A stretch of DNA of 64,000 nt, from positions 1 to 64,000 of IMG/VR virus record IMGVR_UViG_3300007609_000005, one strand, 5' to 3'. Made by a program: the position numbers and the translations under genes. The notes under the pieces were generated by a model. The model saw only the letters and a list, made by a program, of their open reading frames with translations, did no database searches and had not been told where the DNA came from. This DNA comes from a virus. Each line of letters starts with the position of its first letter. Position 1 is the stretch's first letter. Of this stretch, positions 321 through 56,918 are shown piece after piece.

Positions 321-376
321 TTTAATATTTACCACATTTGTATAAACAAATGATCATAATATCAATATATAAGAAT

Positions 377-436
377 ATGAGCCAGACCCAGACTCACATA
401 CAACAATTGCAACAACAATTCGACACGAAAGGTTGA
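377..436 (+). CDS. Gln-rich attenuator leader peptide MSQTQTHIQQLQQQFDTKG
   Basis: 7 of 19 codons are Gln; lies upstream of the HAD-glnS operon and is followed by a terminator. Confidence 0.85.
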   Translation: MSQTQTHIQQLQQQFDTKG

Positions 437-461
437 ATGAAATGGGTATTGTTGTATATCC

Positions 462-495
462 AACCCATTCGACCTAACAGTTGAATGGGTTTTTT
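462..495 (+). terminator. attenuator terminator upstream of HAD/glnS
   Basis: AACCCATTCGAC-ctaaca-GTTGAATGGGTT hairpin followed by a T run; AATGGGT (441-447) is an alternative partner for ACCCATT (463-469). Confidence 0.85.
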
Positions 496-511
496 AGTCT
501 CATGAAATATA

Positions 512-961
512 ATGAAAGTGAAAACAGTACTACTTGATTTTGATGGTGTTATGGTTAAAAACCAACCTTGGAAAGTTATCCAAAGAGAAAGTGATGGGTT
601 TTACAGTTTTGACAAGAGTGCATTAAAACACCTTAAGCAAATACTAAATGAAACCAGAGCAATGATAACACTGATAACAACACACAAAACCAAATATACT
701 GATGAACAATGGGAAGAGATATTTAGAAGACGAGGAATTCAATGTAGAATAAAAAAGGCAAAAGAATTCGATTCAAGAATCGATGAAGTCGAAAATTGGT
801 ATAAAACAAGACCAACCGATCAATTTGTGATATTGGATGATGATAAGTCATTGAATGACCTAAGAAGTGAAATAAAAGAAAGGTTTGTTCTGATTGAATC
901 AGGAATCGGATTAACAAAAGAAAAAACAGAATTAGCAATAAAAATATTAAACGAAAAATGA
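512..961 (+). CDS. HAD-family phosphatase (RNA-repair-associated type)
   Basis: N-terminal LLDFDGV (DxDG) and FVILDDD motifs. Confidence 0.8.
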   Translation: MKVKTVLLDFDGVMVKNQPWKVIQRESDGFYSFDKSALKHLKQILNETRAMITLITTHKTKYTDEQWEEIFRRRGIQCRIKKAKEFDSRIDEVENWYKTRPTDQFVILDDDKSLNDLRSEIKERFVLIESGIGLTKEKTELAIKILNEK

Positions 962-2526
962 ATTTTATAGAAGAAAAAATAATTAACAAAAACAGAACGG
1001 AAAATATGGTACTTCGTTTTCCACCCGAACCAAATGGACACCTACACTTGGGTCATGCAAAATCACTATGTCTAAACTTTGGACTTGCAGAGAAATATGG
1101 TGGAAAGTGCATTTTGAGGTTTGACGATACCAACCCTGCAAAAGAATCAAATGAATATGTAAATTCAATGATCGAGGATGTTGAGTGGTTGGGTTTCACG
1201 CCTGACAAGATATCATACACATCCGATTACTTTGATGAGATATACGAATGTGCCTTAACATTGATAAGTAAAGGATTAGCATATGTCGACCACTCAACTT
1301 CTGAAGAAATTGCTGAGATGAAGGGAACACCAACAACACCAGGTAAGAACTCACCATATCGTAACAATTCCATAGATGAAAACACATATCTTTTCAAAAA
1401 GATGAGAAATGGGGGATACGGTGATAAAAAAGTTGTTCTCCGTGCAAAAATTGATATGGAAAGTCCCAATATGATATTGAGAGACCCCATCCTATACCGA
1501 ATGATCAATAAACCACATCATCGAACAGGAAATTATTGGTGTATCTACCCAATGTATGATATGGCACATCCCTTATGTGATTATTTCGAAGGTATTACAG
1601 ATTCCCTTTGTACATTGGAATTTGAAGTACATAGACCATTATATAATTGGATATTGAACAATTCAGACCTCGTGGGTAACTTACCAGAGGAAACTGAGTT
1701 TTCCCGATTGAATGTCAATGGACATGTTATGAGCAAAAGGATATTCAATGGTCTGATCGATGAAAATAAAGTAGAAGGATGGAATGACCCAAGGTTATTA
1801 ACTATCAAGGGCTTGAAGAAAAGGGGATTCACACCTGAATCCATAAAGGATTTCTGTGATCGGGTGGGTGTTTCAAAACGTGAGGCATCCATTGATGTAG
1901 AATTATTGGAAGAGTGTCTTAGAATTGAATTAAACAAGTCCTCTGACCGTGTTATGGGTGTATTCGACCCGATCAAACTAACCATTTCCAATTGGGAAAG
2001 TGGTACTGAAATGGTAACCATCGAAAATAACCCCGGAGACGAAACAAAGGGTACAAGAGAAGTTCCATTCTCAGGAAATATATTCATTGAACGAGATGAT
2101 TTCAGAGAAGAAGCCAACCGAAAATACCACAGACTTAAACTTGGACACGAAGTTAGGTTAAAGGGTGCATACATAATTAAGGCAGAGTCTGTTATCAAAG
2201 ATAAAAATGGCGATGTCACTGAGGTCATATGCACATATGACCCAGAAACTCGTTCAGGGAACTGCGATAGAAAAATCAAGGGAACCATCCATTGGGTTTC
2301 AAGTGATGACTGTATAAAAATTCCTACATATTCATACGGAACCCCATTCATTGATAATGAATTCAATGAGGATTCCGAATTGATAAACAACAACTCAGTA
2401 TTTGAACCAAGAGTTCTTGAAATAGAAAATGGAGTAAGTGTTCAAATGATGAGGAAGGGTTATTATGTCAAAGATAATGATCGATTTATAAAGACTGTGG
2501 ATCTGAGATCATCATTCAAAATATAA
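958..2526 (+). CDS. glnS: glutaminyl-tRNA synthetase
   Basis: RFPPEPNGHLHLGHAKS (HIGH), LRFDDTNP, WCIYPMYD, LCTLEF, VMSKR (KMSKS equivalent), KGTIHWVS. Confidence 0.96.
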   Translation: MNFIEEKIINKNRTENMVLRFPPEPNGHLHLGHAKSLCLNFGLAEKYGGKCILRFDDTNPAKESNEYVNSMIEDVEWLGFTPDKISYTSDYFDEIYECALTLISKGLAYVDHSTSEEIAEMKGTPTTPGKNSPYRNNSIDENTYLFKKMRNGGYGDKKVVLRAKIDMESPNMILRDPILYRMINKPHHRTGNYWCIYPMYDMAHPLCDYFEGITDSLCTLEFEVHRPLYNWILNNSDLVGNLPEETEFSRLNVNGHVMSKRIFNGLIDENKVEGWNDPRLLTIKGLKKRGFTPESIKDFCDRVGVSKREASIDVELLEECLRIELNKSSDRVMGVFDPIKLTISNWESGTEMVTIENNPGDETKGTREVPFSGNIFIERDDFREEANRKYHRLKLGHEVRLKGAYIIKAESVIKDKNGDVTEVICTYDPETRSGNCDRKIKGTIHWVSSDDCIKIPTYSYGTPFIDNEFNEDSELINNNSVFEPRVLEIENGVSVQMMRKGYYVKDNDRFIKTVDLRSSFKI

Positions 2527-2878: not shown

Positions 2879-3583
2879 ATGAAAATAGAAGAAATAGATC
2901 TATCATATATTTTTGATTATGTTTCATGGAGTAATGATTGCACTTGTGGTGATGATTATTGTCGGTGTCAAGAAATATTAGACCCAGAGATAACCAATTA
3001 TGAAAATTCTAAATTGGTCAATATCATCATATCAGATATATATAACCCAAATACACCACAAGGTCAAAGGAATAACAAATTATCAAAGATTCTGAACAAT
3101 CAAATAATAGTAGAGTATGCTATTCACCGAATTGTTAGTTTGGGAAATATTAAAAATGGGGATGATGATTGGGATTTTAATATTGAATGGGGGTATTATG
3201 GACAAGAAATGACATCAATTAATCTTTGTCCCAGTGTTGCTCGACCACTATCCGAAAAAATTGACAAAATATTATCACTGAAAACCACTAAAGAAATAAT
3301 AGATTATTCTATGGAACTCGAATATGGAAGTTTATCCAAAGATTCAATGAGATGCAAAGATTATAAGGTCATCAAAATATCACATAGTGAATTAGACAAT
3401 AAAAGTATCAACGAAAACCACCTCAATAAAATCGAAAGAGGACTTTATTCTGATTATCCAAAAAATCTACCAAGGGGTATTGTGAAAAAGAATTCACGTG
3501 GATATGTTATCGTAGATGGCTACCATAGAATATTCGATGTCCCTAGTAACAAAGAGTTTATGGTTTATTCAATGAAATTTTAA
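2879..3583 (+). CDS. hypothetical protein with C-terminal ParB/Srx-like motif
   Basis: YVIVDGYHR motif; Cys-rich N-terminus. Confidence 0.6.
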   Translation: MKIEEIDLSYIFDYVSWSNDCTCGDDYCRCQEILDPEITNYENSKLVNIIISDIYNPNTPQGQRNNKLSKILNNQIIVEYAIHRIVSLGNIKNGDDDWDFNIEWGYYGQEMTSINLCPSVARPLSEKIDKILSLKTTKEIIDYSMELEYGSLSKDSMRCKDYKVIKISHSELDNKSINENHLNKIERGLYSDYPKNLPRGIVKKNSRGYVIVDGYHRIFDVPSNKEFMVYSMKF

Positions 3584-3963
3584 TGGATATTATCTACATC
3601 ATATTTTTCATCTATATGGTAACTGAACTGTCATCGGTTTTCATATTAAACACAACATGGTACGAAAAATTTAAATTCATGGCACTGTGTAAAGAATTCC
3701 TAGATGAAAATTTGGATCAGGTATTCACATATAAACTCAATTTTCTTTTCGTTGAATCTAATGGCATATTTGGAACACATTATCAAAATGAACTGAGTAT
3801 TCACCTCAAAGGACATGAACCACTCTATATTACTATAGTTGTAGAAGATGGACAAGTAAATAATAAAAAAAAGATATTGGATTCCATAAAAGAACATTTC
3901 AACAAATCAAAAATAATTAAAGAGAATAGAAATATCACATTAAAAAACATATTAAATGATTGA
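3583..3963 (+). CDS. hypothetical membrane-anchored protein (C-tag)
   Basis: Hydrophobic N-terminus; ends RNITLKNILND. Confidence 0.65.
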   Translation: MDIIYIIFFIYMVTELSSVFILNTTWYEKFKFMALCKEFLDENLDQVFTYKLNFLFVESNGIFGTHYQNELSIHLKGHEPLYITIVVEDGQVNNKKKILDSIKEHFNKSKIIKENRNITLKNILND

Positions 3964-4477
3964 AAAAAGAGAAAATGTATATGAAGGATTTCTTACCGTT
4001 GAAGCACTGGATGTGAAAACTGAATCAGGTGCAACGGTTAGGAGAGAAGTTATGAAAAGACCTGATGCAGTGGCGGCACTCGTATATGACAGAACCAAGG
4101 AGAAATTCATATTTGTTGAACAATTCAGACCTGGTGTGGGTGATAAAATCACAGAAATTGTTGCAGGGACACTCGATAAACCCAACGAAGACCCAAAAAA
4201 AGCCATCAATAGAGAAATTCTCGAAGAAATAGGATATGGAGAAGGTATTATCACTGAGATAGGCAATTATTATGTATCACCTGGTGCTAACACCGAACAA
4301 GTAAGGATATATTGCATTGAAGTTTCTGATAAAATAGAGGCAGGTGGTGGTCTTCCAGAAGAACACGAGGAAATCAATATAATTGAAATGGATACGTATG
4401 AAATGACCAATTATGAATTCAAAGATATGAAGACTGTAGTTGCCGTAGAGTGGTATATTCAAAACAAACTATTATAA
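3956..4477 (+). CDS. NUDIX hydrolase (ADP-ribose pyrophosphatase-like)
   Basis: QFRP and Nudix box AGTLDKPNEDPKKAINREILEEIGY; SPG; EHEEI. Confidence 0.9.
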   Translation: MIEKRENVYEGFLTVEALDVKTESGATVRREVMKRPDAVAALVYDRTKEKFIFVEQFRPGVGDKITEIVAGTLDKPNEDPKKAINREILEEIGYGEGIITEIGNYYVSPGANTEQVRIYCIEVSDKIEAGGGLPEEHEEINIIEMDTYEMTNYEFKDMKTVVAVEWYIQNKLL

Positions 4478-4516
4478 ATCTCATATATAAAATAAAATTT
4501 GTAACTTTGTGGTATT

Positions 4517-5038
4517 ATGAACACACGAAGAATCATAAAATTATTGGAAGGTCTTGACAAACCTTGGGTAATGGTGTTGATCGGACCTCCATTAAGTGGG
4601 AAAACTACATTCATAAAAAATGTATTGACTGAACAAGAATTCACCCATGTATCATATGATAATATGATTATGGAATTGGACCCTATCCAAGATGGTGATT
4701 ATGAACGTGCATGGAAACAGACCAATTGGAAAATGGTCAACAAAGCATGTAAAAGCCTTATGAGAAAATGCAACGAGAACCGTGAAAATGCTGTTATTGA
4801 TTACACTAACATGAATTCTAAAAGACGACAGTCCAATCTTAGTTTTTTTGACAAAGAATATTATAAGATTGCAGTAAAGTTTCCTATTCTCGAAATGGAA
4901 GAATATAGAGAACGTAATAGAATTCGTATGAGAACCGAATCTAAGATAATATCAGATGATACTATCGAGTTTTTCCTAAAACAGTACAATCCCATCAACC
5001 CAAAGATGGAGAAGTTTGATAAAGTGATAGAACTTTAA
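4517..5038 (+). CDS. P-loop kinase (AAA_33 / polynucleotide kinase-like)
   Basis: GPPLSGKTT Walker A; VIDYTNMNSKRR. Confidence 0.8.
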   Translation: MNTRRIIKLLEGLDKPWVMVLIGPPLSGKTTFIKNVLTEQEFTHVSYDNMIMELDPIQDGDYERAWKQTNWKMVNKACKSLMRKCNENRENAVIDYTNMNSKRRQSNLSFFDKEYYKIAVKFPILEMEEYRERNRIRMRTESKIISDDTIEFFLKQYNPINPKMEKFDKVIEL

Positions 5039-8950: not shown

Positions 8951-10117
8951 TTAAAAACTAACCGGAAACGGAATAACATCATGAACTTTCGGTGCTTTTG
9001 TTATAAACATCAACAACCTCTCAAAGCCCAATCCGAATCCAGAATGCGGGACTGATCCCCATCTACGTGTTTCAGTGTACCATTTCATCTTATCCATGTC
9101 CATGCCTTCCATTGAATCTAATAACTTTTCATAATCTTCTTCTCTTTGCGAACCTCCAATCAACTCACCAACTTCCGGAAAGATAAGGTCAAAACAAAGA
9201 GCATACCTATCATCTTTCTTCATATAGAATGGTTTCAACTCTTTTGGATAATGAGTAATGAAAGTTGGTCCCCATTTTTCTGTTATTGATTTTTCAACTT
9301 CTGAGGATATATCCTCACCCCATTTGAAGCCGAACTCTTCTTGAATTTCATCATACTTTTTAATAACCCAAGGTTTTGATGTGTCAATAATATCATCGAG
9401 GTGTGAAGTGTCTTTTAATTCCTTCATAGAACCTCTTATAATAGACTTAACAAAGTCTTCAGCGAACCCAATTGTATCATCGAGGGCATACCAAGCAAAT
9501 TCCGGTTCAACCATCCAGAATTCAGATAAATGCTTTCTAGTGGCTGATTTTTCTGCTCTGAACGTTGGTCCAAATGTATAGATTTGCCCAAGTGCCATCA
9601 TCCCTACTTCACCATGTAATTGACCCGAAACAGTTAATTGTTCTTCCATCCAATCAGATGAAACTTTAAAAGTTTCACCAGCACCTTCGCAATCAGCATG
9701 TGTAATTATAGGTGTATGGTATTGATAAACACCCATTTCATCCATATATCGGTGAATTGCCTGTGTAAGATGGTGACGTGTTCTTAAAATTTCTTGAAAT
9801 TGTCTGGCTCTACCACGAAGATGTGGAATAGAACGGAAGAACTCATCTGAATGTTTTTTAGGTTGTAGTGGATATTCATCATCAGCATCACCAATGATTG
9901 TTACTTTGCTTGCAACAATTTCCGGAAATCCTCTTGGTGTAACTCCTTCTTCACCTTCAACTATTACAGATGCTCCTATTTTCAATTCCCCTTTAACATC
10001 ACAAAGCTCTTCTTTGATTGTTATTTGATGATCTTCTGTTCCATCTGTTACGGGAACGAACTTGATTGATTTTGATCTACGGATACTTTTTATCCATCCT
10101 TTTACTTCTCTTTTCAT
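8951..10117 (-). CDS. asnS: asparaginyl-tRNA synthetase
   Basis: LTVSGQLHGE, FGPTFRAEKS..RKHLSEFWMVEPE (motif 2), GELIGGSQRE, PHSGFGLGFER (motif 3). Confidence 0.95.
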   Translation of the reverse strand: MKREVKGWIKSIRRSKSIKFVPVTDGTEDHQITIKEELCDVKGELKIGASVIVEGEEGVTPRGFPEIVASKVTIIGDADDEYPLQPKKHSDEFFRSIPHLRGRARQFQEILRTRHHLTQAIHRYMDEMGVYQYHTPIITHADCEGAGETFKVSSDWMEEQLTVSGQLHGEVGMMALGQIYTFGPTFRAEKSATRKHLSEFWMVEPEFAWYALDDTIGFAEDFVKSIIRGSMKELKDTSHLDDIIDTSKPWVIKKYDEIQEEFGFKWGEDISSEVEKSITEKWGPTFITHYPKELKPFYMKKDDRYALCFDLIFPEVGELIGGSQREEDYEKLLDSMEGMDMDKMKWYTETRRWGSVPHSGFGLGFERLLMFITKAPKVHDVIPFPVSF

Positions 10118-10144: not shown

Positions 10145-10176
10145 AAAAAAACCCTGTCAGTTTCCTGACAGGGTTT
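10145..10176 (-). terminator. attenuator terminator upstream of asnS
   Basis: Minus strand AAACCCTGTCAG-GAAA-CTGACAGGGTTT followed by a T run. Confidence 0.9.
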
Positions 10177-10204
10177 GCTTAATTTTTAGGCAATAATAAT
10201 CCAG

Positions 10205-10252
10205 TCAGGGTTTCCTGTTATGATTATTATTATTTATTGATAATGATTTCAT
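10205..10252 (-). CDS. Asn-rich attenuator leader peptide MKSLSINNNNHNRKP
   Basis: Four consecutive AAT plus one AAC; lies between a TAnnTTTG box (10257-10264) and the terminator before asnS. Confidence 0.85.
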   Translation of the reverse strand: MKSLSINNNNHNRKP

Positions 10253-10275
10253 TTTACAAATATAATAAAAATTTA

Positions 10276-12734: not shown

Positions 12735-13289
12735 ATGAGTATAAAGAAATTTACAAGTATGATAAATGAAATCCGTAAAAACGAGTACGGTTGTTCAATG
12801 GTATATTTTGATTTACCTTTTATTGATATGATACATGAATACATTGACGAAAAAGATATATACGAAGACCCAAATGATCCATCATATGGACTCGAAGATG
12901 AACCACACGTTACACTTCTTTTCGGATTACACGACAATGTTGATGATGAAGACGTATTCGACCTTTCAACACCCAAAGAAATAACACCAATAACATTAAA
13001 AAACATTGGGTGCTTTGAATCCCAAAATGGATATAATGTTCTTAAATTCGAAGCAGAAGCAGATTGGTTGGGGGAATGTAATGAGAAACTTACCGAACTG
13101 CCACACACATCAAATTTCCAGGATTACAAACCACATTGCACCATCTCATATATGATAAATGGAAAGTGTGATAAATATATCGATATCCTAAAGGGAGTTG
13201 AAATAAAAGTAGAACCCAAGGAATTGGTGTATTCAAAACCATCAGGTCAAAAAATCAAACGATCAATCAAGGATATCACCAAGGACTGA
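12735..13289 (+). CDS. 2H phosphoesterase, Acb1/T4 57B-like (N-tag)
   Basis: Two HxT motifs: PHVTLLFG and YKPHCTISY. Confidence 0.8.
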   Translation: MSIKKFTSMINEIRKNEYGCSMVYFDLPFIDMIHEYIDEKDIYEDPNDPSYGLEDEPHVTLLFGLHDNVDDEDVFDLSTPKEITPITLKNIGCFESQNGYNVLKFEAEADWLGECNEKLTELPHTSNFQDYKPHCTISYMINGKCDKYIDILKGVEIKVEPKELVYSKPSGQKIKRSIKDITKD

Positions 13290-39288: not shown

Positions 39289-40968
39289 CTATACACACAA
39301 ATTATATTTTAACTTACCACAATCCCATATACGTTCAATTTTATTACTTTGCATATATGATTTTTCAGATTCTTTTTCGGAAATACTCTCTAATTTATCC
39401 CTTTGAAAACTTCTTTTATTGACCCTACTACCATTAACAATATATTTATAGTCCGGACCACTACTTTTCACCCTCTCAAATCCAAGTTTTTCATATAGAT
39501 TGCCTTCACTCCAACACCTATCTGCATAACTGATTATACGGGTTGCATTATATTCCCTTATAAACCATTTCAACAATTTCCCGGCACCACCAATAACATT
39601 CGTGTTCAATTTGTTACAGAACCTCGAAAGATTCCATTCACCATCATCCATCTTCACCCTCCCCTCGAATTTATTGAATGTCATTACTGCCACAAGTTCA
39701 TCATTGTATAAAAGACCAATATAAACAGAACTTCTATCATTCCCTTGTATATGATTTTCCTTTAAAAACTCAGAACACCGTCTAGTACTTAATTTAACAA
39801 CTTCACATTTCCGTGCCCCTATTTTCGTATCACTTATAGATAATATACTTGATATCTGACTCTTTATGATTGAACCTCTTTCAACCCAATCATCTTCCCA
39901 TATATGTATGATACGTATACCTTTATCATTGAAATATGATGTTTTATCAATGTGGTAGTTTTTATACTTATATTTCTCAGAATGCCAATAAAGCCCATTG
40001 AATTCAAAGCCTATTTTCAACTCCGGTAAGTAAATATCAATTTCCAAACCATCTCGATAAGACCTCACCACTTCACCATTATATATTGAATTGATGTATT
40101 CATATAACTCACCCTCCTTAATAGAAGTGGAATCCGATATTGGATTACAAACAGTACATAGGTTTACATTTGATTTTTTCCGATTATAGTACATATATGA
40201 TGATATCTCAAAATTATGATCACAACCTTTATCACAATTGAATTCTGAAATATTGTCACCAACATATCCAATGTAATTTTCATCATTTGATAAATGGACA
40301 CTATGACCTCTTATAGATTCAGAAGAATATGGCGAAGTTGAACCATATCTATCTAACATTGTTTTCTTAATTTTTTCTCTAACACCTGGGTCAGATAAAC
40401 TGGACCAATATCCCGTCTTATCATAATATGTTTTGGATATCCTATCATATATTTCTGGAACCTTTGATGGGTGATCCACCCCATACTTCTCCAAAAATGA
40501 ATTTCTTATCATTTCTTTATCATGGAATGGATTTTTAAATCCAAACTTCTCCATATTGGTTTTGGACTTACGTTCTTTATATTCATCCGTTTTAGAATAA
40601 TGATCCACCCCATATCTATCTAAGTTGGTTTCCTTAACTCGGTCTTTATATTGATTGGTCTTCGAATAATGATCCACCCCATATTTTTGAGAATTAGTTA
40701 CTTTATTCTTAACACTAGAACATTTAACACAAGTGTAAATAGGCAGTTCCTCACAAGAATTCACATTCTTGTTATAAGACTGATATGTTATGATATTCTC
40801 AGAAAAACAAACATCACAAGACACTTTAACCTTTTTATTACTCTTTTTCTGAAGATGTATAATATCAATATCTATCACATCGCCACATTCTATACCAACA
40901 TAATATTCACTGAAATGATCAATATTCCTCTTACTTATCTTAACCTTTATTGATTTATCTACTAACAT
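39289..40968 (-). CDS. homing-endonuclease-like protein (zinc ribbons, KYGVDH repeats, PD-(D/E)xK/Vsr-like domain)
   Basis: CDVC/CVKC, repeated YGVDH(Y/P)SK, LEIDIYLPELKIGFEFNGLYWH, IHIWEDDW, C-terminal GARKC...SRFC...SYAD domain. Confidence 0.75.
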   Translation of the reverse strand: MLVDKSIKVKISKRNIDHFSEYYVGIECGDVIDIDIIHLQKKSNKKVKVSCDVCFSENIITYQSYNKNVNSCEELPIYTCVKCSSVKNKVTNSQKYGVDHYSKTNQYKDRVKETNLDRYGVDHYSKTDEYKERKSKTNMEKFGFKNPFHDKEMIRNSFLEKYGVDHPSKVPEIYDRISKTYYDKTGYWSSLSDPGVREKIKKTMLDRYGSTSPYSSESIRGHSVHLSNDENYIGYVGDNISEFNCDKGCDHNFEISSYMYYNRKKSNVNLCTVCNPISDSTSIKEGELYEYINSIYNGEVVRSYRDGLEIDIYLPELKIGFEFNGLYWHSEKYKYKNYHIDKTSYFNDKGIRIIHIWEDDWVERGSIIKSQISSILSISDTKIGARKCEVVKLSTRRCSEFLKENHIQGNDRSSVYIGLLYNDELVAVMTFNKFEGRVKMDDGEWNLSRFCNKLNTNVIGGAGKLLKWFIREYNATRIISYADRCWSEGNLYEKLGFERVKSSGPDYKYIVNGSRVNKRSFQRDKLESISEKESEKSYMQSNKIERIWDCGKLKYNLCV

Positions 40969-41077
40969 AACCTATATATTACAATTAAATTCTTCTTATT
41001 ATGGTAATTTTTTGTTGTTTGTTTAAAAAAAAGCATTATCTTTGTAAAACAAATCTTAAACATATAATAAAATTAAC

Positions 41078-42652
41078 ATGATTATAAACAAGAACATACA
41101 CGAAAAACTCCTTACGTCAATCCAAGAAATGTTGATCGATACGAAAGTTAATCTACCATACTATGGTGAATTTAACTTATTGGTGAACTTTCACGAGTCC
41201 AATAACCTTCCAACATGTGGTGTAAATGTTACATCAAAGGGGATGAACTTCTACTACAATCCGAAGTTCCTACAACACATGTCCCAAAAAGAAGTGAACT
41301 TCGTAACACTACACGAAGATTTCCACTTACTTTTCAATCACCCACGTAGAACAATCACGGGTCAATATAATCACAAATTGTCGAATATTGCACAAGATAT
41401 GATTATCAACTACATCATTTGGGACGATATCTCTCACAATTTTGTAGAAATTCCAAAGGATGAGAATGGTAAGAATATGGCACTGTTCCCACCAAAGGAA
41501 TACAAAGGTAAATTGATCTATGAAGAAGTCTATACTTGGTTGAAAGACGAAAAAGAAAAGTGGGACGAAGAACAGAAGAAAAACTCCGGTGATGGTGATT
41601 GCCAAACATGTAACGGCTCTGGTCAAAAACAAGACCAAAATGATCAAGGTCAAAGTGATGGTCAAGGTCAAGACCAAGGCCAAGGTCAAGGTGATGGTCA
41701 AGGTGATGGTCAAGGTGATGGAGAAGGTCAAGACCAAGGTCAAGGTCAAGGTGATGGTCAAGGTGATGGAGAAGGTCAAGGTCAAGGTGATGGTCAAGGT
41801 GATGGACACAATCACGGTCAATCAGGCGAACCTTGCCCAGATTGTAATGGCACGGGTAACCAAAATGGTATGGATTCATCTGGTAAGCCATCTTATGGTC
41901 CATATGGACAAAACCCATCCGGAGATGGTTCTATTGATACATGGTCAAAAGAACAGATCTTTAAGGACATGGATCAGAATGATGGACAATATATGGATTC
42001 CCACATCACCGATGATGTTCCTGAGGACATGAGAGAAACAATGGTACGAGATGCCATGGAAAGATTGGCTGCACGAGGACTTGCATCAGGTAATATTGAA
42101 ACAACTCTGAATAAACTTCAGAAGAAACGAAAAGATTACTTGAAAGAAATCAAACGTTCAATCTCAAATGAGATCTTCGGTACTAAAAAACAAAAGACTA
42201 TTACTCGAATCAATCGTAGAGGTATCAAAGGTCTTAAAGGTAACCGAAAGACCAAGACAACAATCAACGTTATTCTTGATACATCCGGTTCTATGGGTGG
42301 TCAAGGGACATTTGAAAGAGTTCTGTCGTATGTTTATAGGAACGACATTGAAATAAACTTCATCCAAGGTGATACTGATGTGAAGTGGGTTGAGAAGTTC
42401 AAGAAGAAACGTCAATTGGAAACAATGAAAATCCGAGGTCTTGGTGGCACTGTGCTCCAACCTAGCGTGGATTACTGTGTCGAACACTATAATGAGTACA
42501 ATACTTGTATACTTACGGATGGTTACACAGATACTCTTGACCTCTCTAAGTTGAATGGACGAGTTCTAATGATTTCTGTTGGTGTTGAAGTACCAACTAG
42601 CCGACCACCAAAGAAAGGTGTGAAGCAAATCGTACTTGAAGAAACTCACTAA
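41078..42652 (+). CDS. DUF2201-type metallopeptidase + VWA domain protein
   Basis: HEDFH (HExxH), NIAQDMIIN, MIDAS DTSGSM, GGT, LTDG. Confidence 0.85.
   Translation: MIINKNIHEKLLTSIQEMLIDTKVNLPYYGEFNLLVNFHESNNLPTCGVNVTSKGMNFYYNPKFLQHMSQKEVNFVTLHEDFHLLFNHPRRTITGQYNHKLSNIAQDMIINYIIWDDISHNFVEIPKDENGKNMALFPPKEYKGKLIYEEVYTWLKDEKEKWDEEQKKNSGDGDCQTCNGSGQKQDQNDQGQSDGQGQDQGQGQGDGQGDGQGDGEGQDQGQGQGDGQGDGEGQGQGDGQGDGHNHGQSGEPCPDCNGTGNQNGMDSSGKPSYGPYGQNPSGDGSIDTWSKEQIFKDMDQNDGQYMDSHITDDVPEDMRETMVRDAMERLAARGLASGNIETTLNKLQKKRKDYLKEIKRSISNEIFGTKKQKTITRINRRGIKGLKGNRKTKTTINVILDTSGSMGGQGTFERVLSYVYRNDIEINFIQGDTDVKWVEKFKKKRQLETMKIRGLGGTVLQPSVDYCVEHYNEYNTCILTDGYTDTLDLSKLNGRVLMISVGVEVPTSRPPKKGVKQIVLEETH
41641..41806 (+). 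repeat. intragenic GQGQ/GDGQ low-complexity tandem repeat
   Basis: Multiple GGTCAA and GGTGATGGTCAA units. Confidence 0.9.
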
Positions 42653-50109: not shown

Positions 50110-51330
50110 ATGATACATAATTTTAAAAAATACAATGAAGCCCAAGAAGATACAGTTGGGAAACTTCCCTTGGAGGCAGAAGGTCTATATGATATGATGC
50201 CCGATTCCATAAAGGAGATATCCAAAGTATTCAGTGAATCAGGGAAAAGCCTTTACCTTGTGGGTGGTGCAATCAGAGATTATATCAAAGGTCAAGAACC
50301 AAAAGATTATGATGTTGCAACTGATGCAATGCCAGATGAAGTATTGGATATCCTTAAAGGGTATAAGACACAACTACAAGGAGAAGCTTTTGGAATCGTA
50401 GTGGTTTACACAGATGATCAACCAGAAGGAATGGAAATTGCCACCTTCCGCCAAGATATAAGCAAAGGCAGAAACCCAAAGGTAAAACTTGGTGTAACGA
50501 TTGAAGAAGATGTGGAAAGGCGTGACCTAACCTATAATGCAATGTTCTATCACATTGAGAAAAAGGAGATATATGACCTTGTTGGTGGTATGAAGGACTT
50601 AGAAGATGGCATAACACGAATGGTTGGAGATCCTTTCGAAAGAATAGAAGAAGATTCCCTTAGAATTTTGAGGGCTTTCCGGTTTGCATCCAGATACAAT
50701 CACATATTGGATGAACGTTCAATCGAGGCATTTGAAAAGAGAAATAATTTAGAGAACATCGATCCAGATACAGGGGAATTGAAAAGAATATCTTCCGAAC
50801 GTATTTATGAAGAAATGCAAAAGGCATGGAAACAATCACCTGACTATAACTATTATTTACAATTCTTCAATGAATTCAATATGTGGTCAGAGGTCTTTCC
50901 AGGTGCAAATATAAATGAGAATTTGATTGAAACCGATAGTTTCAGAGTATGCCTCGCCAATCTTTTCAGAAATGAGAATCCAAATGGATTGGCGAATAAA
51001 CTGATAAGTAAATATAAGATAGATGGTGGTACAGCCGACACCATCGAATTTTTAATTGAATTCAACAATATGACTGAAGAAAATGCCATTGAAGTTCAGA
51101 AAAAATTGAAAAAGAAAAATCTTGATGTGGAAAATATCAAGGAATCGGATATACTTGAATGGATACGAGTTGAAAATCTTGGTAACCTACATAAGAAATT
51201 TCTTCAATATAAACCAAAGAATTGGAGTGACGAATTGAAGAAACAAGGGTTTAAACCCGGTCCGGAATTCGGAAAAGAGATAAGAAAACGTAGTATAGAC
51301 GATTTTAAGACTTTCATTTCTAATAAATAA
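50110..51330 (+). CDS. cca: class II CCA tRNA nucleotidyltransferase (N-tag)
   Basis: LVGGAIRD, KDYDVAT, EIATFR, RRDLTYNA, EDSLRILRAFRF, SSERI..E. Confidence 0.88.
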   Translation: MIHNFKKYNEAQEDTVGKLPLEAEGLYDMMPDSIKEISKVFSESGKSLYLVGGAIRDYIKGQEPKDYDVATDAMPDEVLDILKGYKTQLQGEAFGIVVVYTDDQPEGMEIATFRQDISKGRNPKVKLGVTIEEDVERRDLTYNAMFYHIEKKEIYDLVGGMKDLEDGITRMVGDPFERIEEDSLRILRAFRFASRYNHILDERSIEAFEKRNNLENIDPDTGELKRISSERIYEEMQKAWKQSPDYNYYLQFFNEFNMWSEVFPGANINENLIETDSFRVCLANLFRNENPNGLANKLISKYKIDGGTADTIEFLIEFNNMTEENAIEVQKKLKKKNLDVENIKESDILEWIRVENLGNLHKKFLQYKPKNWSDELKKQGFKPGPEFGKEIRKRSIDDFKTFISNK

Positions 51331-56872: not shown

Positions 56873-56918
56873 CATATGGAACACTTGCCATTCCATTTAA
56901 AATCTGTATATTTGTATT

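Follow-up and report, generated by a model that had tools for sequence, protein, structure and literature searches.

Attenuation of transcription by a translated leader peptide is a textbook mechanism in bacterial amino-acid operons and in pheST, and several bacterial genes for aminoacyl-tRNA synthetases are controlled by a protein that binds to the leader (thrS) or by a tRNA that binds to the leader (T-boxes). Here we describe a candidate attenuator upstream of glnS, the gene for glutamine--tRNA ligase, at the start of the IMG/VR virus record IMGVR_UViG_3300007609_000005. The window, by which we mean the whole stretch of DNA analyzed, is the first 64 kb of this 132,459-base record, which is estimated to be 52% complete. 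This large, uncultured phage keeps its own glnS behind a Gln-codon leader and a predicted switchable transcription stop, and probably makes the enzyme only when Gln codons are decoded slowly. The element is likely a transcription attenuator of the classical leader-peptide type, in which the progress of a ribosome reports the speed of Gln-codon decoding and so gates the phage glnS. This reading, which supports the trp/his/pheST-type stalling architecture proposed in an initial annotation of the stretch, was reached because of folds constrained by a ribosome on either the Gln codons or the leader stop, 13 related loci with the same logic, and three more pairs of a leader and its cognate synthetase gene in the same genome.

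As in the enterobacterial trp, his, leu and thr leaders, the position of the ribosome on the regulatory codons would pick either an antiterminator or a terminator, and the free RNA would terminate. Unlike in these leaders, the cargo consists of charging and RNA-repair-type genes and not of genes for amino-acid biosynthesis. The locus would also resemble the T-boxes of Firmicutes in reading the charging state of one particular tRNA and in controlling synthetase genes through antitermination, whereas the sensor here would be a translated open reading frame (ORF), with no specifier loop and no T-box sequence. A search of the whole window with Rfam 15 at gathering scores gave a tRNA-Met only, and no His, Trp, Thr or Leu leader and no T-box.

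T-boxes are named among the controls of synthetase genes, and classical attenuators have been predicted before trpS and leuS in Streptomyces (PMC1262725). The glnS locus is like these leaders, and like E. coli pheST with its pheM leader, in having a short ORF rich in cognate codons, alternative helices (1:2, 2:3 and 3:4) and an intrinsic terminator before the synthetase gene. It is unlike them in the amino acid (Gln), in its location on a phage genome, in having HAD_SAK_2 as the first gene, in an antiterminator that holds the stop codon of the leader, in the lack of sequence homology and in the presence of four such devices in one genome. Huge phages carry many tRNA and synthetase genes, and in the main text of the paper that describes them the terms 'attenuat', 'leader' and 'terminator' do not occur (PMC7162821). 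In Shewanella a predicted motif in the 5' untranslated region of glnS has been labelled 'tRNA synthetase leader', with no Gln-codon leader peptide described in the accessible part of the source (PMC2659441). Our literature searches found no leader-peptide attenuator for Gln or Asn, nor one in any phage, in line with the initial annotation, which knew of no such description in phages. The element, strongly supported in silico, extends a known mechanism to another amino acid, to a phage as its carrier and to different cargo, and it belongs to a set that covers several amino acids.

Leader, terminator and competing helices

The leader ORF lies on the plus strand, as do all features of the glnS locus, at positions 377-436, and ends with the TGA at 434-436. 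It encodes MSQTQTHIQQLQQQFDTKG, in which 7 of the 19 residues are Gln (5 CAA and 2 CAG codons), as the initial annotation had read it. Two further in-frame starts, an ATG at 350 and a TTG at 338, would give a leader of 28-32 amino acids, and by any start it is at most 32 codons long. At the Gln frequency of this genome (2.6%) the probability of finding at least 7 Gln in 18 residues is 2e-7.

The leader RNA contains several strands that can pair in more than one way. Region 1 (398-410), the 5' strand of the anti-antiterminator, lies over codons Ile8 to Gln12 and has its partner in region 2b (446-457). The 5' strand of the antiterminator (AGGUUGAAUG..U, 430-443) has the stop codon inside it and would therefore be covered by a ribosome at the stop; the 3' strand (462-475) is made up of the 5' arm of the terminator (462-473) plus two nucleotides of its loop. 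The intrinsic terminator (462-495) has a stem of 12 pairs, 462-473 with 480-491, of which 5 are G-C, a loop of 6 nucleotides and a U tract that ends at 495, and the hairpin has a predicted energy of -16.2 kcal/mol. The U tract is followed after 16 nucleotides by the ATG of a HAD_SAK_2 phosphatase-family gene (512-961), and the start of glnS (958-2526) overlaps the stop codon of that gene (ATGA).

RNAfold of positions 363-500 gave -36.4 kcal/mol, as compared to -21.6 ± 3.2 kcal/mol for 200 dinucleotide shuffles (z -4.60), and none of the 200 was as good. The minimum free energy (MFE) fold of this free RNA holds both the 1:2 helix, with 12 pairs between 398-410 and 446-457, and the terminator. 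An inner hairpin (418-424 and 426 with 431 and 432-438) encloses the stop codon and is formed in the free RNA only, where region 2b is the partner of region 1; in the antiterminated fold region 2b becomes part of another inner hairpin, 443-449/456-462. The initial annotation had called for computational folding of the leader, and the folds recovered its 1:2 helix and its terminator. Its 1:2 helix, 398-407/448-457, is an exact 10-bp complement that is extended to 12 pairs in the MFE fold, and its terminator at 462-495 is the 12-pair stem with U tract described above. The antiterminator was only partly right: 441-447/463-469 is indeed an exact 7-bp complement, but it reaches only -6.7 kcal/mol alone. 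In our models the strongest antiterminator is 430-439/466-475, which includes the stop codon of the leader and by far outdoes the helix proposed before.

The effect of a ribosome was modelled by folding the leader transcript with a 28-nucleotide footprint kept unpaired, placed over the Gln codons or over the stop. In the stalled state, with the footprint on the Gln run and the nascent RNA ending before the 3' arm of the terminator, 430-439 paired with 466-475 and the inner hairpin 443-449/456-462 was formed as well, at -20.8 to -22.6 kcal/mol. At -22.6 kcal/mol, 9 of the 12 terminator-arm nucleotides were sequestered in the stalled nascent fold. Shuffles of the spacer gave -9.9 ± 2.7 kcal/mol in the same state (z -4.76), and 0/200 equalled both the energy and the pairing. 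When the footprint was instead placed on the stop codon none of the 12 arm nucleotides was sequestered and the terminator formed with 12/12 pairs. The full-length RNA of the window lost the terminator at both stall positions (0/12 pairs kept). The antiterminator starts 11-14 nucleotides past the last Gln codon, a distance with a lower bound set by the footprint mask and hence of no evidential weight. The in silico analysis thus recovered a short ORF, cognate codons, a terminator, a stall-dependent antiterminator and an anti-antiterminator, as in classical attenuators.

In the mechanism we propose, the leader would be translated by a ribosome while RNA polymerase transcribes it. With plentiful Gln-tRNA(Gln) the ribosome would reach the stop codon (434-436) and cover 430-443, the terminator (462-491) would form and transcription would end around position 495. 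If charged tRNA(Gln) is short, the ribosome would stall on the Gln codons at 401-418 and cover region 1, 430-439 would pair with 466-475 before the 3' arm of the terminator exists, and the polymerase would continue into HAD_SAK_2 and glnS. A leader that is not translated would let region 1 pair with 446-457, and the terminator would form and leave the operon off. From the sequence we infer translation of the leader, function of the terminator and coupling in the host, the response to Gln-tRNA, and the triggering event. Starvation or a host defence that targets tRNA, both named in the initial annotation, are speculative candidates for the trigger.

Related glnS loci and further cognate leaders

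The nearest GlnRS proteins among GenBank phages are those of two uncultured huge phages of 634 kb and 642 kb, with 62% and 57% identity; the accessions of the pair are LR745206 and LR756502. Both have a Gln-run ORF (MTTTQQIQQQQINQTD and MTTSFQQQQQQQINRTD) and a strong terminator about 500 nucleotides 5' of glnS, and between the terminator and glnS lie 3 or 4 tRNA-Gln genes. In IMG/VR, 76 distinct glnS loci were obtained by a profile scan. They were screened for a small ORF (8-45 codons) that contains QQQ or a 7-residue stretch with 4 or more Gln and has behind it a hairpin (-9 kcal/mol or lower) and 5 or more T. The device was found in 11 of the 76, that is in 10 of 13 loci with a GlnRS 57-62% identical to that of the window, plus L027 (53%), and together with the two GenBank phages this makes 13 relatives. 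The same detector found no match in 62 more distant viral glnS loci. Neither did it find a leader with terminator in 104,640 nucleotides upstream of glnS in 80 bacterial loci, which are mostly from Bacteroidota and have 48-53% identity; in one of these a small Gln-rich ORF that lacks a terminator lies over 1 kb upstream. A bacterial origin of the device is disfavoured by the finding of a Gln leader with terminator in 0/80 loci.

Leader conservation upstream of related phage glnS genes, which the initial annotation had asked for, is thus seen in the 13 relatives, with differing sequences. Their leader ORFs have 15-28 codons, and the exact 35-nucleotide pattern of the window leader occurs in no stretch of the viral contigs searched. 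In the footprint test all 13 followed the same logic, in that 7-13 arm nucleotides were sequestered with a stalled ribosome and 0-6 with one at the stop, and in nine of them only 0-1 of 200 shuffles was equal on both measures. In most relatives (C)AGAUUGA, an Asp codon plus the stop, pairs with the top of the terminator arm, UCAAUCU(G). Across the loci the antiterminator strands are G[A/G]UUGA with UCAAUC, UCGACC or UUAGUC; L007 has UAGAUUGA versus UCAGUCUA, a compensatory exchange of C-G to U-A, the window has GGUUGA versus UCGACC, an exchange of A-U to G-C, L002 uses G-U pairs, and in L011, L014 and L027 the strands are unrelated in sequence. The covariation was taken from constrained folds made for each sequence and is fitted to each sequence. 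L005 and L019 retain GAUUGA even though their reading frame across it is different and their stop codon is farther downstream, which places the constraint on the RNA and not on the peptide. The TATTGT core of region 2b is conserved in a MAFFT alignment of 12 leaders, in which the terminator arms of several rows are out of register.

The Gln leader of the window is therefore like that of the related huge phages in its Gln run, in a G[A/G]UUGA that contains the stop or is close to it and has the 5' arm of the terminator as its partner, in the TATTGT strand and in a glnS that is 57-62% identical. It is unlike them in what comes next. All 13 relatives have 2-4 tRNA-Gln genes behind the terminator and then glnS, with the first tRNA-Gln 3 nucleotides past the U tract in 9/13 and at 7-58 nucleotides in the other four. 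In the window, protein genes stand directly behind the terminator; it contains no tRNA-Gln, and the sole tRNA in the 132-kb record is a tRNA-Met.

The related huge phages have further units of leader and terminator before other tRNA blocks (L002 1561-1668, L007 2205-2300, L009 2227-2316, L013 2259-2354 and L010 2078-2164). Asp/Pro-rich leaders with ..VDVDQDPD.. or ..PDQDPD.. occur upstream of tRNA-Asp/Pro genes, and an Asn-rich leader, MKTQNQYNQNQNWYQNYQ.., occurs upstream of two tRNA-Asn genes. The Gln leader of L001 (about 2425-2485), L002, L004, L008 and L018 starts about 30 nucleotides past an upstream tRNA gene, with no obvious room for a promoter, and in these five relatives it seems to form part of a longer transcript of tRNA genes.

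Both strands of the 132-kb record were also scanned for ORFs of up to 45 codons in which one amino acid fills 4 or more of 7 residues and which have a terminator (-10 kcal/mol or lower) behind them. Five matches were obtained in 2 x 132 kb, and three of them lie directly before cognate synthetase genes (Gln, Asn and Ile). An Ala-rich match (108474, minus strand) and a Leu-rich match (88001, minus strand) were treated as probable chance matches.

The Asn attenuator (10145-10264, minus strand) has TATATTTG at 10264-10257, 4 nucleotides before the leader MKSLSINNNNHNRKP (10252-10205), and a terminator at 10176-10149 (-20 kcal/mol) with a U tract to 10145. Behind it on the same strand lies asnS, the gene for asparagine--tRNA ligase (8951-10117; TIGR00457, 392.6 bits versus a cut-off of 342.6). 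An 11-pair helix joins the Asn codons to 10202-10192, and the folds with the ribosome stalled or at the stop behave as in the Gln leader (z -3.1, 0/200 shuffles). Two more pairs lie beyond the window. In locus L091 (record 97427-95055, minus strand) the Ile leader MRSTCIIIIHRLTPWIFQW with its terminator precedes IleRS (TIGR00392, 690.6 versus 621.4 bits). In locus L092 (record 67887-69366, plus strand) the leader is rich in Val, MNNKSENNLVVVTDIVKMLV, has a hairpin of 15 pairs and stands before a ValRS-like gene of 442 amino acids; this leader was missed by the genome-wide detector because its T tract is short. For the Asn, Ile and Val leaders each stall/stop fold test gave 0/200 shuffles, as for Gln. 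Of the five synthetase genes found, four thus lie behind a leader that is rich in their own amino acid. The ValRS-like protein (68038-69366) and the LeuRS-like protein (426 amino acids; 73443-74723, L093) have only about half of the normal size and stay under the NCBIfam cut-offs, and they may lack the editing domain.

Promoters, objections and alternative explanations

The motif TAnnTTTG, which we take to be a Bacteroidota promoter motif, was also seen before glnS in Bacteroidota loci. In the window it is only marginally enriched (110 versus 91 ± 10). The nearest exact plus-strand match 5' of the leader is a promoter-like TACCTTTG at 111-118, 4 nucleotides before a 65-amino-acid ORF (123-320), with a putative role in transcription of the leader. 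A variant with one mismatch, CACATTTG, is found at 333-340, 36 nucleotides before the leader ATG, and may be the promoter of the leader itself; in L005, a syntenic relative, an exact TACATTTG occupies the corresponding place. The transcript may thus start at either of these two sites. On the plus strand there is no TAnnTTTG between 118 and 2531 and no sigma-70-like site between 227 and 671. No promoter-like site was found between the leader and the HAD gene, so that HAD and glnS would have to be transcribed through the attenuator.

TAnnTTTG, mostly as TATATTTG, also stands exactly 4 nucleotides before an ATG at 111-118, 2867-2874, 10264-10257 (minus strand), 56907-56914 and, in the record, about 73431-73438. 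The arrangement of TATATTTG, 4 nucleotides and ATG recurs at the Asn leader, the ORFs at 2879 and 56919 and the LeuRS-like gene. This spacing suggests promoters of the Bacteroidota type, with transcripts that are leaderless or nearly so.

Several observations speak against an attenuator at glnS. The leader has no Shine-Dalgarno sequence, and the candidate for its own promoter is a motif with one mismatch only. The Bacteroidota-type host is suggested by the relatives of GlnRS and by the promoter-like motifs, and coupling of transcription and translation in such a host is assumed. Most of the Gln codons are CAA, the common Gln codon of the genome (691 CAA versus 195 CAG), from which it follows that a sensor of this kind would be independent of rare codons. 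Two of the 13 close IMG/VR relatives are without a leader, L024/L010, in which tRNA-Gln is present, and L026/L012, which has neither; a third close locus, L017/L006, has just 127 nucleotides of upstream DNA, too short to judge. Shuffle support is weaker in four of the 13 relatives with the device (5/200 in L005, 5/200 in L013, 3/200 in L019 and 6/200 in L027). The LeuRS-like gene of the same genome is without a leader and has TATATTTG 4 nucleotides before its ATG. Finally, 11 leaders were folded as full-length stalled RNA at equilibrium, and most relatives keep the terminator as the MFE fold; it is lost only in the window (both stall positions) and in L007 (stall at the last Gln codon). In most relatives antitermination must therefore be kinetic, and textbook attenuators likewise rely on kinetic antitermination.

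Possibly, the switch reports general translation capacity, such as the availability of ribosomes during host take-over or the timing of infection, with the Gln run as a slow patch that sets a delay. The untranslated RNA folds into the terminated form, so any loss of translation would turn the operon off, and the Gln codons are the common CAA. A general sensor, however, needs no matching of leader and gene, and here the leaders match their own synthetases (Gln, Asn, Ile and Val) and the leaders of the relatives match the tRNA genes behind them (Gln, Asn and Asp/Pro). On these grounds we regard a sensor of general capacity as improbable. It would be very unlikely, too, that the leader RNA is read by a factor in trans (GlnRS, an uncharged tRNA in the manner of a T-box, or a phage protein) and that the ORF is incidental, even if several bacterial synthetase genes such as thrS and those with T-boxes are controlled by a protein or tRNA that binds to the leader. 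The window has no T-box or other Rfam match of this kind at gathering score, no element that resembles a specifier loop or a tRNA was seen, and what is conserved while the sequences drift is the ORF, the Gln run and the stop inside the antiterminator strand. That the hairpin and U tract are merely a constitutive terminator of the upstream ORF (123-320), with a Gln-rich ORF present by chance or unrelated and a start signal of its own for HAD-glnS, can nearly be dismissed, for although terminator-like sites are common (4 in 3 kb) and the promoter calls are uncertain with a barely enriched TAnnTTTG, chance fails to explain four leaders each cognate to the synthetase behind it, the Gln leader is kept in 13 relatives with changed sequence, no shuffle in 200 matched the antiterminator, and the 16 nucleotides from the U tract to the HAD start hold no promoter-like site.

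Genes behind the terminator and meaning for the phage

If the Gln leader is an attenuator, its first cargo gene is HAD_SAK_2. The initial annotation had placed a HAD phosphatase and then glnS behind the terminator, and profile matches bear this out. The 149-amino-acid HAD protein matches PF18143 (E 1.6e-23, 84 bits versus a cut-off of 27.5) over profile positions 2-138 of 139, and the translation of 512-961 has HAD motif I (DxDxV/T) as DFDGV, as well as a DDD motif. Searched by sequence against solved structures it gave nothing significant. That it might be an RNA-repair phosphatase, as the initial annotation had it, is suggested by its Pfam family name, HAD_SAK_2, which stands for the HAD domain of 'Swiss Army Knife' RNA-repair proteins. 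GlnRS (958-2526) matches TIGR00440 with 612.3 bits (cut-off 425.8), and also PF00749 (E 5e-97), PF03950 and PF20974.

The HAD protein has no relative among the viral contigs searched and 6 relatives in metagenome contigs, one of them close (L174, 59% identical). In this contig (1-2126) the HAD_SAK_2 gene adjoins glnS with the same ATGA overlap; the contig ends 75 nucleotides upstream of HAD, with the leader region outside it. The ORF before HAD in L174 has an end that matches the end of the 120-amino-acid ORF preceding glnS in L005. The pairing of HAD with glnS is therefore found again in another phage lineage. None of the 13 relatives has the HAD gene close to glnS, where tRNA-Gln genes stand, and thus the cargo of the operon varies while the sensor stays. 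L005 shares genes after glnS with the window, namely a 234-amino-acid ORF (2879-3583 in the window), a NUDIX gene and an AAA_33 kinase.

Genes related to RNA ends and tRNA are scattered in the window (3956-5038, 12735-13289 and 50110-51330): NUDIX, the AAA_33 kinase, a 2H/Acb1-like phosphoesterase and a CCA-adding tRNA nucleotidyltransferase. The AAA_33 kinase matches a PHROG annotated as polynucleotide kinase. The 350-nucleotide gap after glnS contains, at 2551-2737 on the plus strand, a weak match to RNase P RNA (RF00373; 27-35 bits versus a gathering score of 84, E 1.7e-8 to 5.7e-6), with TATATTTG at 2531-2538 just 5' of it. The blocks GAGGAA, AGCAAC, CAGGUA and ACAGAA align and most of the specificity domain is absent; the fold of the segment does not surpass that of shuffles (z +0.6), the model for bacterial type A gave nothing there and 0/7 related loci match. 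Two large HNH/homing-endonuclease-like genes (559 and 524 amino acids) lie head to head at 39289-42652 of the window.

A trigger by tRNA-targeting defence might fit the neighbours by name only, that is HAD_SAK_2, the polynucleotide-kinase-like AAA_33, the 2H/Acb1-like protein and the CCA-adding enzyme. In a more speculative extension, which we think has a small but real chance of being correct, the leaders would form a set of amino-acid-specific decoding alarms, with one for each synthetase gene here (Gln, Asn, Ile and Val) and one for each tRNA block in the relatives. Each would detect a tRNA species that is depleted or damaged during infection, be it by an anticodon nuclease of the host or by a tRNase that acts on the acceptor stem, and induce the matching charging or replacement function, and the Gln alarm would add a HAD 3'-phosphatase-type healing of cut tRNA ends. 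If so, the glnS locus would be a damage-induced operon for repair and recharging of tRNA, and not a case of nutritional control.

To our knowledge, few such regulators are known in Bacteroidota-type hosts. If the switches work as read here, the phage meters each part of its translation equipment by the decoding speed of that codon family. They would be compact amino-acid-specific sensors, seemingly for Bacteroidota-type hosts, and the purpose of phage synthetases would become directly testable, with codon-usage mismatch, host shut-off and host tRNA-cleaving defences as the conditions to compare.

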